Shown: one piece after another, positions 12,837 through 52,058 of the stretch
How the letters are laid out: the number at the start of each line of letters is the position of its first letter
How positions within the stretch are numbered: the first letter of the stretch is position 1
Assembly (NCBI RefSeq): GCF_045037415.1
Contig: NZ_CP173438.1
Length of the DNA stretch: 64,000 bases
Origin: Escherichia coli
GTDB lineage: Bacteria > Pseudomonadota > Gammaproteobacteria > Enterobacterales > Enterobacteriaceae
Direction: 5' to 3' (one strand)
Notes under the pieces: generated by a model
Told to the model about the DNA's origin: nothing
Databases searched by the model: none
Seen by the model: only the letters and a program-made list of their open reading frames with translations
Made by a program: the position numbers and the translations under genes

Positions 12837-13194
12837 TCATCTTCCCCGCTCGCGCAAAACTTCACAATAAAAAAACATTTGTGATTTAAATGAATTAAAA
12901 ACACCCAAAATCGATGAAATCAGCCTTCCCGATCTGTTTTACAGAGTTACATCTGGCAGCGCAATAGCGTTAAAGACACTCACTATCCGGCAACATCTAT
13001 CATCTAATAAACCAGAAAAACAAATAACATCATGTTTTTAAAGTGATTAAATGAAATAAAATTTTAAGCCACTCTCCATTATTCACAATAAAACAAACTT
13101 TATAAATTTTATTTTTTTGTGAAGTTGCCAGCATCTTTTCTGTTCTTGCTGTGGTGATATAGTGGCGTCTTCAATTCAAGGACAAGAGAACGTG

Positions 13195-46293: not shown

Positions 46294-48254
<1,961 letters not shown>

Positions 48255-48263
48255 TCTCTCCCC

Positions 48264-48293
48264 TTCCCCGGTCGCTTGATCGGGGAATTTCTT
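48264..48293. terminator. Hairpin between convergent actP and the lrgB-like gene
   Basis: TTCCCCG-gtcgcttgat-CGGGGAA inverted repeat in a 38-bp convergent spacer. Confidence 0.5.
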
Positions 48294-48982
48294 CAGAACA
48301 TCATCCTGGCCACCAGCGGCGAAACCAATACCATCAATACACCTGAAAGCATCATGACCAGGCTTGCAACTACGCCTTCTTGTTGACCCAGTTCATACGA
48401 CCGCGCAGTCCCGGCACCATGAGATGCCGCGCCGAATCCAGCACCTTTCGCCATCCCTTCGCGAATAGAGAGACGTAAAAACAACACGTCGCCAATCGCC
48501 ATGCCAAACACACCGGTGACCACCACAAACAGCGCCACCAGATCAGGCTGTCCGCCGAGCGACTGGCTCGCTGCCAAAGCAAATGGCGTAGTGACCGAAC
48601 GCACCGCCAGGCTACGCTGGATCTCATCTGGCAGGGTAAACAATCGCGCCAGCCACACTGAGCTGGTCACTGCCACCACCGTTGCCGTCAGTACGCCTGC
48701 CGTCAACGACATCCAGTGACGCTTAATGATCGCCCGATTGTCATACACTGGTACCGCAAAGGCGATGGTGGCCGGACCTAATAGCCATAGTAACCAGTGC
48801 GCTTCGCCAATATAGTTTTGCCAGGAAATATTGCCAAAAACCAGCAGCATAACCAGTAGCGTAGGCGTCAGCACCAGAGGCATCAATGGCAATTTACGAA
48901 AGCGGCGATAAAGGCGTTTGTTAAGAAAATAGATAACTAGCGTAATTGCCAGACAGAGCATACTTAGCTGAAAATTAGCCAC
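48293..48982 (-). CDS. LrgB/CidB-family membrane protein (229 aa)
   Basis: Polytopic; LrgB-type translation MANFQLSMLCLAITLVIYFLNKRLYRRFRKLPLMPLVL...; overlaps the upstream lrgA-like gene by 8 nt. Confidence 0.8.
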   Translation of the reverse strand: MANFQLSMLCLAITLVIYFLNKRLYRRFRKLPLMPLVLTPTLLVMLLVFGNISWQNYIGEAHWLLWLLGPATIAFAVPVYDNRAIIKRHWMSLTAGVLTATVVAVTSSVWLARLFTLPDEIQRSLAVRSVTTPFALAASQSLGGQPDLVALFVVVTGVFGMAIGDVLFLRLSIREGMAKGAGFGAASHGAGTARSYELGQQEGVVASLVMMLSGVLMVLVSPLVARMMF

Positions 48983-49385
48983 GGTTTAACCTGCGCATTT
49001 CATAGCGATAGACTTTTTCCACTACCCAGGCAGTCGTGCCCAGCACCATCACCGTACTCAGCGCGATCACAGCAAAAATACGCCAGCCATCCACCAGTAA
49101 TAGTTGTGCATAGTTCACCACAGCCACCACGGCAGGGACAAAAAACAGCAACATTTCGGCCAATAGCCAACGCGCCCCGGCTCGAACCCATTGCAGAGGA
49201 AGAATGCGACAAACAATCAGCGCCAGCATCAGGATCATCCCCACCAGGTTGGCAGGCAGCGGCAAATGCAGCCAGGAGACGAGATACTGCGCAAAAATAA
49301 ATAAACCTGCATACAGCACAACCTGAAAAAATACCTGGATAGATTGCACTACGGCAGGGGTAATGCGGCGAAGCGCCACGGGCAT
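48975..49385 (-). CDS. LrgA/CidA-family holin-like small membrane protein (136 aa)
   Basis: About four TM helices, LrgA-like; distinct from K-12 YohJ as recalled. Confidence 0.75.
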   Translation of the reverse strand: MPVALRRITPAVVQSIQVFFQVVLYAGLFIFAQYLVSWLHLPLPANLVGMILMLALIVCRILPLQWVRAGARWLLAEMLLFFVPAVVAVVNYAQLLLVDGWRIFAVIALSTVMVLGTTAWVVEKVYRYEMRRLNRG

Positions 49386-49446
49386 GAGAGGATATCCTGA
49401 AAATAAAACAGAATGGTAAGTATAGAGAGCGCTCGCCCCTGACTGA

Positions 49447-49463
49447 AATGAATTAAAATCATT
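49447..49463. promoter_or_regulatory. Candidate LysR-type dyad in the divergent lrgA-like/LysR promoter
   Basis: AATGA-ATTAAAA-TCATT inverted repeat in the 103-bp divergent spacer. Confidence 0.35.
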
Positions 49464-49488
49464 GCAGGTATAGTCAAAGGGAATAGTT

Positions 49489-50373
49489 ATGGATATCAGA
49501 ACGCTGCGTTATTTTGTCGAAGTCGTGCGCCAGCAAAGCTTCACCCGCGCAGCGGAGAAGTTGTTTGTCACCCAACCAACTATCAGCAAGATGCTGAAGA
49601 ATCTCGAAGATGAGCTGAACTGTATATTGTTGATCCGCGATGGTCGTCGGCTGCTTCTCACTGATACTGGTCGCGTCGTATTTGAGCGCGGGCTGGCTTT
49701 ACTGGCTGAGTTTCGGCAACTGGAAGCTGAGCTTAGCGATATCAATCAGCTTAAAACCGGCGTTTTGCGGCTGGGAATCCCGCCGATGGTTGGGATGTTG
49801 ATGGCCGGGCCGATTGGCCTTTTTCGCCAGCGTTACCCCGGCGTAGAATTGAAAATTTCGGAGTTTGGTGGTCTGACGGTACAACAAGCGGTGATGAACG
49901 GTGAACTGGATATGGCACTGACAGCCCTGCCAGTAGAAGAAAGCGGCCTGACAACGTTATCGCTGTTTAGTCATCCACTATGTGTACTGACGCCACATTC
50001 AGGTAAATGGCTTGAATGTGATGCCGTCTCACCGGAGACATTGGCGGAACATCCTCTACTTATCTATAACGAAGATTTTGCCTTAAGTAAGCAATTGATG
50101 AAGTTATTCGATGAACATGGCGTTAAGCCGAGAATTGCAGTTCGCAGCGGGCAATGGGATTTTCTCGCCGCGATGGTTCAGGCCGGTGTCGGAATAGCCA
50201 TATTGCCGGAACCCATTTGCCAGCGATTAGATAAAAACACCTTAAAATGGCTACCGCTGGAAAGCGAACTAAGCTGGAAATTAGGAATGATTTGGCGTGA
50301 GGGCGTTTACCTTTCCCACTCTGCCCACGCGTGGCTGAGCTGTTGTGAAGGATACTGGTTAACGCCAGAGTAA
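49489..50373 (+). CDS. LysR-family transcriptional regulator (294 aa)
   Basis: N-terminal HTH (RAAEKLFVTQPTISKMLKNLEDEL) and LysR substrate-binding domain; divergent from the lrgA/B-like pair. Confidence 0.88.
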   Translation: MDIRTLRYFVEVVRQQSFTRAAEKLFVTQPTISKMLKNLEDELNCILLIRDGRRLLLTDTGRVVFERGLALLAEFRQLEAELSDINQLKTGVLRLGIPPMVGMLMAGPIGLFRQRYPGVELKISEFGGLTVQQAVMNGELDMALTALPVEESGLTTLSLFSHPLCVLTPHSGKWLECDAVSPETLAEHPLLIYNEDFALSKQLMKLFDEHGVKPRIAVRSGQWDFLAAMVQAGVGIAILPEPICQRLDKNTLKWLPLESELSWKLGMIWREGVYLSHSAHAWLSCCEGYWLTPE

Positions 50374-50378
50374 GTCGG

Positions 50379-50400
50379 GTTGGCGGGCTCGCCCGCCAAC
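50379..50400. terminator. Bidirectional hairpin between the LysR gene and yjcE
   Basis: GTTGGCGGGC-tc-GCCCGCCAAC perfect 10-bp stem in a 35-bp convergent spacer. Confidence 0.75.
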
Positions 50401-50408
50401 CATGCAGA

Positions 50409-52058
50409 TTACTGATTTTCCTCAATCAGCAACGCTTCAAGCAAATCGAGATCGTGCAGTAATTTTTGCAGCGTTTCGTTACTGATCTCCCGCGTGGCGC
50501 GCAGGTGGTACAGTTCAGCACGTTCAGAACGCAATGCCGCCAGACGGAAGCGACGCTCCAGGTTCTCTTCCAGGATTGAACTTTCTACATCATTACGTCC
50601 ATCGGCGCGACGACGCAGGTTACCAATGACGCGAGAACTAACCTCTGTGAGCAGCTGGTTATCGATATTCTCTTCGGTATCCGCCGCCAAACGCTCCTCC
50701 ATTTTCTGGATCGCCACAATCGCCACTTCTGCCGTTGCCGCTCGTGCAATACGTTCCTCTTTCAATTGTTGCGAATGGTCCGCGACTTCTATGTGTTGTA
50801 GCAGAATAGGCAACATCACCACGCCGACAAACAACGAGAAGAGAATGACGCCAGCCGCCAGGAACACCAACTCATAGCGCGCAGGGAAGACGTTACCATC
50901 CGGCAAGAGAAGCGGGATAGAGAGCACACCGGCCAGAGTGATCGCCCCACGCACCCCGGCGAAAGACGCGATCAGGATTTCTCGTGTAGTCCACGAACCA
51001 AACTCCATCGGCTTCTTCTTCAGGAAGCGGTTGCTGAACTTTTTCATCGTCCACAGCCAGCCGAAACGGACCAGCATCAGCGCCGCATATATCAGAATAA
51101 TATCGGTAAACAGCATCCAGATTTCGACGTTAGGATCGATTTCTGCCGCCATCAGCGACGTCTCCAGAATCCCCGGCAACTGCAGACCTAACAGCAGGAA
51201 CACCATGCCGTTAAAGACAAATTCCAGCATCGCCCAGGTGCTGTTTGCGCGCAGGCGCATTGCCAGCGGCGCACGGCGCATCACACCGGAGCGGGTGATG
51301 GTCATCCCGGCGGCAACCGCAGCGAGGATGCCGGAAACGCCAATATGTTCCGCAATCAGATAAGAAGCGAATGGCAGCAAGAACAGCAGAACGATCTGCG
51401 TCGCGGGTTCATCACCGCCCCAGCGGCTGAGGAATCGCAGCGAGCGACCATACAGCCAGCTCACCACAAAACCGGCGAGAATACCGCCTATTGCCACTTT
51501 CATAAATTCGACCGTCGCACCGCCGACGGTGAAGATCATTGTCCCCATCGCCACTGCCACGGCAAACTTCAACGACACCAGGCCGGAGGCGTCATTCATC
51601 AACGCTTCGCCCTGCAAAATGCCCATGATTTTTTTCGGGATGCGCCCCTCGCCAACAATCCCGGAGAGCGCTACAGCATCGGTCGGAGAAAGCACCGCAG
51701 CCAGCGCAAAGGCGGGGATCAGCGGAATGCCCGGCACCACCCAGTAAATAAGGAAGCCAATGCCGACCACGGTGACCACCACCAGCGCCAGCGCGAGGCC
51801 GAAAATCTCTCGCCCATGTTCGAGAAATTCACGGGTCGGCGTTTTCCAACCATCAGCGAACAGCAACGGCGGGATAAACAAGACTAAAAAGAGTTCAGGA
51901 TCAAACTCCACATGCAAACCAAACGTCGGCCACGCCAGTAGCGCACCGATGGCGATTTGCATAAGCGGAAGCGGGATCTGAAAGGGCATGACACGAGTGA
52001 CCACCCCGGACAGCGAGACCACGAGGGTCATTATCAGTATGGTGAAGAAGATTTCCAT
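50409..52058 (-). CDS. yjcE: YjcE, Na+/H+ exchanger, CPA1 family (549 aa)
   Basis: Polytopic translation MEIFFTILIMTLVVSLSGVVTRVMPFQIPL... Confidence 0.92.
   Translation of the reverse strand: MEIFFTILIMTLVVSLSGVVTRVMPFQIPLPLMQIAIGALLAWPTFGLHVEFDPELFLVLFIPPLLFADGWKTPTREFLEHGREIFGLALALVVVTVVGIGFLIYWVVPGIPLIPAFALAAVLSPTDAVALSGIVGEGRIPKKIMGILQGEALMNDASGLVSLKFAVAVAMGTMIFTVGGATVEFMKVAIGGILAGFVVSWLYGRSLRFLSRWGGDEPATQIVLLFLLPFASYLIAEHIGVSGILAAVAAGMTITRSGVMRRAPLAMRLRANSTWAMLEFVFNGMVFLLLGLQLPGILETSLMAAEIDPNVEIWMLFTDIILIYAALMLVRFGWLWTMKKFSNRFLKKKPMEFGSWTTREILIASFAGVRGAITLAGVLSIPLLLPDGNVFPARYELVFLAAGVILFSLFVGVVMLPILLQHIEVADHSQQLKEERIARAATAEVAIVAIQKMEERLAADTEENIDNQLLTEVSSRVIGNLRRRADGRNDVESSILEENLERRFRLAALRSERAELYHLRATREISNETLQKLLHDLDLLEALLIEENQ

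Follow-up and report, generated by a model that had tools for sequence, protein, structure and literature searches.

Does the short inverted repeat in the spacer between an lrgA-like gene and a divergently transcribed LysR-type regulator gene of Escherichia coli serve as the operator of that regulator, and does it govern one of the two genes or both? The window analyzed here is a stretch of 64,000 nucleotides of E. coli chromosome, of which positions 48200–50500 are 100% identical to several complete E. coli genomes. RefSeq gives the gene order of the identical E. coli DNA as actP, LrgB family, CidA/LrgA family, LysR family regulator, yjcE and ghxP, and the open reading frame calls for the lrgB-like, lrgA-like and LysR genes match both this annotation and Pfam. 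The spacer and the genes on either side of it are as follows.

48293..48982, minus strand: gene for an LrgB-family membrane protein, 229 aa (open reading frame; Pfam PF04172, E=2e-69; RefSeq), second gene of the presumed target operon
48975..49385, minus strand: gene for a CidA/LrgA-family membrane protein, 136 aa (open reading frame; Pfam PF03788, E=6e-26; RefSeq), first gene of the presumed target operon
49386..49488, no strand: divergent promoter/operator spacer, 103 bp, 38% G+C, from the lrgA-like ATG (49385, minus strand) to the LysR ATG (49489)
49489..50373, plus strand: gene for a LysR-type transcriptional regulator, 294 aa, CidR-like (Pfam HTH_1 and LysR_substrate)

The lrgA-like and lrgB-like genes overlap by 8 nt, and orthologs of the lrgA-like protein align from residue 1. 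Both membrane proteins exceed the Pfam gathering scores (90.7 bits for PF03788, cut-off 28; 233.6 bits for PF04172, cut-off 25), and the LrgB-like protein does not reach the equivalog cut-offs of the CidB/LrgB and YohK models. With 54 and 140 bits against YohJ- and YohK-type models, far below the cut-offs, the pair is a paralog pair distinct from YohJK. For the regulator, the best NCBIfam model was CidR (NF047520) at 286 bits, followed by CynR at 157 bits; the CidR cut-off is 415 bits, so we call the protein CidR-like and not a CidR equivalog. LrgA/LrgB proteins are widespread and their roles are debated, with holin/antiholin function on one side and transport of pyruvate, acetate or 3-hydroxypropionate on the other. 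A literature search for this E. coli lrgAB-LysR module returned nothing specific on its function or regulation.

A sequence-only reading of this DNA had pointed to the inverted repeat AATGA-ATTAAAA-TCATT at 49447-49463 of the 103-bp spacer, and both the sequence and the coordinates proved exact. We refer to this element as box 1.

49447..49463, no strand: box 1, a dyad with parts AATGA (49447-49451), ATTAAAA (49452-49458) and TCATT (49459-49463); conserved core AAATGAATTAAA[A/C]TCAT (49446-49462), center 49455, 34 bp before the LysR ATG

Taken alone, the dyad is no more than chance would provide. Of dinucleotide shuffles of the spacer, 55% held a perfect 5-bp inverted repeat whose gap was 0–15 nt and 6% one whose gap was exactly 7 nt, and a 5-N7-5 repeat is present in 13% of 103-bp tiles across the window. 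The dyad was missing from the output of the generic repeat finder, its arms being shorter than the seed length; the five inverted pairs that were reported (I1-I5) are long-range, imperfect and not conserved. The dyad does have the geometry of a LysR-type box: TGAATTAAAATCA (49449-49461) reads T-N11-A with arms ATGA and TCAT, and boxes of this family are described as T-N11-A dyads, of which the regulatory site is found near -65 and the activation sites overlap the -35 element (PMC11495319).

What sets this repeat apart is its conservation. We aligned 71 distinct orthologous spacers and computed the entropy of each column; 15 of the 17 positions of 49446-49462 were invariant, position 49458 was either A or C, and a single sequence differed at 49460. 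Mean entropy over this core was 0.06 bit, compared with 0.76 bit for the whole spacer, 1.41 bit for positions 49429-49440, and 1.06 bit for third codon positions of the first 100 LysR codons. In the LysR gene, only 3 of 100 third codon positions showed no variation, no invariant run in 300 coding nucleotides exceeded 5, and none of 20000 position shuffles gave a 17-nt window as conserved as 49446-49462. No other stretch of the spacer is as constrained across Enterobacteriaceae as box 1, which is also more constrained than the adjoining protein-coding DNA and under very strong purifying selection. The earlier proposal of 5-bp arms held in part: conservation covers the inner ATGA-N7-TCAT but leaves out the outermost, fifth arm pair, as 49463 is C in 44 and T in 27 of the 71 spacers. 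To the left of this conserved dyad stands an invariant AAA. Four conserved blocks emerged from the 71 spacers, among freely varying surroundings.

49419-49428: AGTATAG-n-GA
49445-49462: (G)AAATGAATTAAA[A/C]TCAT
49470-49474: ATAGT, invariant or nearly so
49480-49485: GG-A-ATA, with GG (49480-49481) and ATA (49483-49485) invariant or nearly so

The breadth of this conservation comes from a genome scan that used one genome per species and returned 80 loci with a regulator at 80–100% identity, which together with the RefSeq copy (L001) make 81; the genera include Citrobacter, Enterobacter, Salmonella arizonae, Kluyvera, Kosakonia, Lelliottia, Leclercia, Trabulsiella, Pluralibacter, Phytobacter and Yokenella. 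A divergent lrgA-lrgB pair is kept in 76 of the 81 loci, the spacer measures 100–105 bp in all but two of these 76, and box 1 starts 43 nt before the LysR ATG in every box-carrying scan locus except two with tandem insertions. In 51 of the 81 loci the module occupies the interval from actP to yjcE, and in nearly all it adjoins at least one of these two genes; the sharing of this junction indicates that the module is old at that position. Within the species, the full lrgB-lrgA-LysR module (at least 80% of 48293-50373 covered) was found in 1035 of 5426 complete E. coli genomes. K-12 MG1655 has no module and carries the pentapeptide-repeat gene yjcF between yjcE and actP (L096, K-12 4281783-4283075). 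The module thus looks ancestral in Enterobacteriaceae and replaced in some E. coli lineages.

Three minor observations were made on the public assemblies. In strain SK1144, an IS3-family IS1397 transposase gene lies between acs and yjcH, ~3.3 kb from the spacer (L001 588-1936). On a contig of an "Oscillospiraceae" metagenome-assembled genome (L002), all three module proteins are encoded and are 100% identical to those of the E. coli window; a contig labeled "Chryseobacterium sp. 18061" (L038) encodes an 86%-identical regulator. Both records bear non-enterobacterial labels although their DNA at this locus is enterobacterial, and they are most likely binning or labeling errors.

Beyond these close orthologs, we searched cluster representatives for relatives of the regulator down to ~30% identity and took the genomic context for twelve of them, leaving out L092 (P0136), which is too short to show the partner gene. 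The loci below are listed with their identity to the E. coli regulator.

L082, 70%, partner lrgAB: box 1 AATGAATTAAAATTATT
L083, 46%, partner lrgAB: box 1 AATGAATTATAATTATT
L086, 48%, partner lrgAB: box 1 AATGAATTCTTTCCATA
L091, 41%, partner lrgAB: box 1 AATGAATTAAAATTATG
L098, 41%, partner lrgAB: box 1 diverged (AGCGAATTGTTCGACTT)
L088, 45%, partner of the acetyl-CoA hydrolase/transferase family (PF02550/PF13336): box 1 AATGACTTAAAATCATG
L090, 42%, partner of the acetyl-CoA hydrolase/transferase family: box 1 AACGACTTAAAATCATG
L094, 36% (385 bits on the CidR model), partner GntP permease: box 1 AATGAATTATAACTATA
L099, 39%, partner dCache chemoreceptor (methyl-accepting): box 1 AATGAGAAATAGTTATT

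The box form AATGA[A/C]TT...AT is shared among relatives of 36–70% identity, and its AAATGA side faces the partner gene in every one of these tabulated loci. The T and A of T-N11-A are kept in 8 of 10 diverse loci, with L090 and L098 having C for T, and the recognition-helix region VTQPTISKM (FT.AA..L.VTQP.ISKM) is conserved in all box-carrying relatives. Among the CidR-like loci, no clear box was seen in L093 (Firmicute-type, lrgAB partner) or L095 (Nramp partner). The box-carrying relatives at 36–45% identity that have no lrgAB partner are L088, L089, L090, L094 and L099, with CoA-transferase-type, GntP or chemoreceptor partners. Because the box stays with the regulator family as the partner gene changes, it is tied to the regulator rather than to the target, and it is best read as the regulator's own operator.

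In E. coli and in most of these loci, box 1 has a companion on the side of the regulator gene.

49469..49485, no strand: box 2, TATAG-TCAAAGG-GAATA, center 49477, 22 bp from box 1 and in the same register

When ten diverse loci were anchored on box 1 and scored for 5-N7-5 dyads at each offset, the mean score was highest at +22 (3.4/5) and at 0 (3.3/5), against a background of 1.32 +/- 0.38. The box 2 forms include CATTC-N7-GAATA in L091 and L098, TATTC-N7-GAATT in L099, TATGC-N7-GCATG in L083, and TATGC-N7-GAATA in L082; ATTC-N7-GAAT occurs among them, and the E. coli box 2 is only 3/5 symmetric. In the GC-rich relative L098, box 1 is barely recognizable and box 2 is intact. Box 2 of E. coli overlaps the LysR Shine-Dalgarno sequence (AGGA, 49479-49482) and an alternative -10 element (TATAGT, 49469-49474), and its position over the regulator's ribosome-binding site accounts for part of its conservation; in L083, however, box 2 is ~40 nt away from the start codon and is thus more than a ribosome-binding site.

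To read these positions as an operator, they have to be set against the promoters. A scan of 49250-49650 on both strands for consensus sigma-70 promoters (threshold at least 9/12 matches) and terminators found none, so that every promoter position given here is deduced from conserved hexamers; the empty scan fits weak, factor-dependent promoters.

49420..49425, minus strand: predicted lrgA -10, TATACT (AGTATAG, 49419-49425, invariant or nearly so in the 71 spacers)
49442..49448, minus strand: putative weak lrgA -35, either TTCAGT with a 16-bp spacer (3/6) or TTTCAG with a 17-bp spacer (2/6), overlapping the left edge of box 1
49395..49398, minus strand: likely lrgA Shine-Dalgarno AGGA, a putative ribosome-binding site inside the palindrome AGGATATCCT (49389-49398)
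49454..49459, plus strand: candidate LysR -10, TAAAAT, read from the sequence of the box 1 spacer

The lrgA transcript would start near 49413, ~7 nt past the -10 element, and have a leader of ~28 nt. A -10 element nearer to the lrgA ATG (around 49400-49405) was rejected, as transcription would then begin downstream of the ribosome-binding site. Counted from the predicted start, the centers of box 1 and box 2 would lie at ~-42 and ~-64, respectively, in the lrgA promoter. Given its good, invariant -10 and poor -35, this promoter should need an activator. In the distant loci, a -10-like element on the partner strand (TATACT, TATAAT, TAAAAT or a weaker variant) lies 20–22 nt beyond box 1. On the regulator side, relatives read TATAAT, TAAAAT, TAAACT or TATAAC at the candidate LysR -10, and no conserved -35 for the LysR gene was found in the spacer alignments. 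The two LysR -10 candidates are TAAAAT in box 1 and TATAGT in box 2, and a bound protein would cover both.

We therefore consider it likely, with a good deal of confidence, that the dyad is box 1 of a predicted two-box operator for the adjacent CidR-like LysR-type regulator. The suggestion that the LysR protein autoregulates or activates the lrgA/B-like pair through the dyad finds support in silico from the geometry of the box, its conservation, its co-occurrence with the regulator, and its fixed spacing to a -10-like element. We infer that the regulator would bind at the two boxes and would activate rather than repress lrgA. In the mechanism that we propose, a regulator tetramer would bind box 2 (~-64) and box 1 (~-42) of the lrgA-lrgB promoter, and a small-molecule inducer would probably stabilize or reposition the binding at ~-42, from where the regulator could recruit RNA polymerase and turn on the genes of the LrgA/LrgB-type transporter. 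Since both boxes cover the predicted -10/start region of the regulator's divergent promoter, the same binding would be expected to repress the regulator's own synthesis. Autorepression in LysR-type systems acts via a shared divergent promoter (PMC11495319).

The rival that we take most seriously is a residual one, in which the boxes only autorepress the LysR gene, lrgA-lrgB are independent of it and the real targets are elsewhere; we regard it as unlikely. It draws on the position of box 1, only 34 bp from the regulator ATG, and on three of the five loci that carry the regulator without a detectable lrgAB in the upstream DNA covered, namely L009, L074 (with only ~330 bp of upstream DNA available) and L077, in which box 1 is intact. 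The remaining two, L075 and L078, have lost lrgAB and have a decayed box 1 (at least two changes), which argues the other way, as do the fixed distance of 20–22 nt from box 1 to the target-side -10-like element across distant taxa and the combination of an invariant TATACT with a poor -35, the signature of an activator-dependent promoter. The homolog YwbI, moreover, activates a divergent cidAB-like operon (PMC4462622). Two loci, L031 (Escherichia sp. ESNIH1) and L032 (a metagenome-assembled genome of Enterobacteriaceae), have one or two extra tandem copies of the 16-bp TCTTCCGGAATAnTTn between box 2 and the LysR start codon (about 2945-2990 in L031 and about 2960-2990 in L032), giving spacers of 119 or 135 bp (duplications of 32 bp in L031 and 16 bp in L032). 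These insertions shift the regulator gene and so alter its distance from the box, with the spacing of box 1 to both box 2 and lrgA unchanged, a pattern that again speaks against autorepression as the only role. As anecdotes, the insertions and the lrgAB-less loci fit a site that serves both autoregulation and the control of lrgA.

Less probable still are two readings that take the conserved block away from the regulator, each of which we consider very unlikely. One assigns it to another global protein such as a member of the CRP/FNR family, ArcA or IHF: the DNA is AT-rich, and AAATGA...TCATT resembles the CRP/FNR half-sites AAATGTGA-N6-TCACATTT. The consensus for these proteins is TGTGA-N6-TCACA or TTGAT-N4-ATCAA, however, and here GA and TC are 7 nt apart instead of 6 and the half-sites match at 3/5; on account of this spacing and half-site mismatch the CRP, FNR and IHF readings were rejected. 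With a host-specific global regulator, the box would also not be expected beside relatives of the regulator in unrelated genomes, partly Firmicute-like and GC-rich, in which the partners differ. The partner box at +22 bp fits a LysR-type tetramer. The other holds that the block is conserved only as overlapping core elements of the two divergent promoters, to which the TAAAAT hexamer inside box 1 and the overlap of the lrgA -35 position with its left edge lend some credit. A contiguous stretch of 17 nearly invariant positions is nevertheless longer than sigma-70 hexamers require, agreement of the putative -35 with the consensus is only 2-3/6, and the dyad retains its T-N11-A geometry and is found again beside the regulator in distant taxa. 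That the dyad arose by chance in AT-rich DNA and has no function would be in line with the abundance of short repeats (6% and 55% of shuffles, 13% of tiles), but near-invariance in 71 spacers in which neighboring and synonymous sites are saturated, matched by 0 of 20000 shuffles, refutes it, and we give it practically no weight.

Set beside the classic systems of the family (BenM/CatM, CbnR and OxyR; PMC11495319), this predicted operator shares the divergence of the regulator gene from its target, the 4-bp arms around a 7-bp center (ATGA-N7-TCAT here, ATAC-N7-GTAT in BenM), a pair of boxes separated by about two helical turns, which would lie at ~-64 and ~-42 of the target promoter, and the overlap of the boxes with the regulator's own putative promoter, from which autorepression is expected. 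It differs in that the distal site, near -65, is the strong, symmetric and best conserved one in those systems, whereas in Enterobacteriaceae the best conserved and most symmetric is box 1, the predicted proximal one, and in that no third site (AS1) was identified in this spacer. Overall, the arrangement is a textbook LysR-type divergent promoter, ordinary for the family and no surprise to a specialist.

Closer comparisons can be drawn with CidR and its homologs. CidR activates cidABC in Staphylococcus aureus under excess glucose and acetic acid, and the Bacillus subtilis homolog YwbI is needed for acetate induction of the adjacent, divergent ywbHG, a cidAB-like operon (PMC4462622). The likeness to CidR of S. 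aureus and B. anthracis and to YwbI, with their cidABC, cidAB and ywbHG operons, lies in CidR being the best curated model for this regulator and in a CidA/LrgA plus CidB/LrgB pair being the presumed target; the regulator gene adjoins its presumed target operon as in ywbI/ywbHG, and the Firmicute-type CidR-like L094 has the closely related box AATGAATTATAACTATA. Unlike those systems, this one belongs to a Gram-negative host and lacks a cidC or alsSD partner. The S. aureus CidR site was reportedly described by Sadykov et al. in 2019 as TAGTA-A/T-TACAAA, which bears no obvious resemblance to ATGA-N7-TCAT. The pair YohJ/YohK of the same species belongs to the same families (PF03788 and PF04172) and, like the pair here, is probably concerned with small-carboxylate transport; one report implicates it in 3-hydroxypropionate tolerance under YieP control (PMC7642389). 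The pair studied here differs in being accessory and in being paired with a LysR-type regulator rather than YieP. LrgAB-type pairs have also been reported as pyruvate importers in S. mutans and B. subtilis.

The sequence-only reading had further regarded the spacer as a handle for finding the inducing ligand, and in this the analysis helps indirectly, through the CidR/YwbI-like ancestry, the carboxylate-gene partners and the linkage to acs-yjcH-actP. The partners of L088, L089, L090, L094 and L099 hint that the regulator subfamily senses a small carboxylate. By analogy, our guess is that a short-chain carboxylate, acetate or pyruvate for instance, would be the most plausible inducer, in view of the persistent linkage to acs-yjcH-actP, the CoA-transferase-like, GntP and dCache partners, and the precedent of CidR/YwbI. 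A broader proposal, which we put forward tentatively and consider rather doubtful as a whole, is that a two-box operator AATGAATTAAAATCAT-N6-yATnC-N7-GmAT defines a carboxylate-sensing CidR-like LysR subfamily spanning Proteobacteria and Firmicutes, and that the enterobacterial LrgA/LrgB is an unrecognized inducible carboxylate transporter of the acetate switch, present in about one fifth of E. coli strains. If this were true, the conserved box would offer a direct route to a biosensor and to the ligand. A matching AATGAATTA...-N-ATTC-N7-GAAT in the S. aureus cidR-cidA or B. subtilis ywbI-ywbH spacers would link the operator to CidR promoters that have been studied. The conserved predicted operator, with its putatively activator-dependent promoter, could in any case supply a reporter for inducer screens and a motif for regulon searches.

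Elsewhere in the window, a 15-mer search allowing up to 3 mismatches gave weak matches only. The left half of box 1, AAATGAATTAAAA, occurs in the rpiB-alsR spacer as an exact copy at 12888-12900 and with one mismatch at 13049-13061, 161 bp apart; with box 1 included, the window has 3 matches where 0.15 would be expected, a number that 0 of 100 shuffles reached. Both rpiB-alsR copies are also present, with one mismatch each, in K-12, which is without the LysR module (L097 4126-4138 and 4287-4299), so we did not count them as part of a regulon and they are probably unrelated to this regulator. Perhaps they are AlsR/RpiR operators or simply AT-rich promoter DNA.

Two palindromes within the spacer itself deserve mention. 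In E. coli, the stretch from the lrgA -10 to box 1 contains the 8-bp perfect palindrome GAGCGCTC (49427-49434), all of which, apart from 49427-49428, belongs to the most variable section of the spacer; it is not conserved in other genera and is for that reason probably fortuitous. The 10-bp perfect palindrome AGGATATCCT (49389-49398) abuts the lrgA start codon, and orthologs (L005-L081) have different but still palindromic sequences at this position, such as AGGAATTCCT, AGGACATGTCCT and CTCA-N3-4-TGAG. Palindromes with arms of at least 4 bp stand beside the lrgA start in 42 of the 71 spacers, compared with ~12 expected from shuffles, and the GGA..TCC type is enriched; the element could be a small leader hairpin or the site of another protein.
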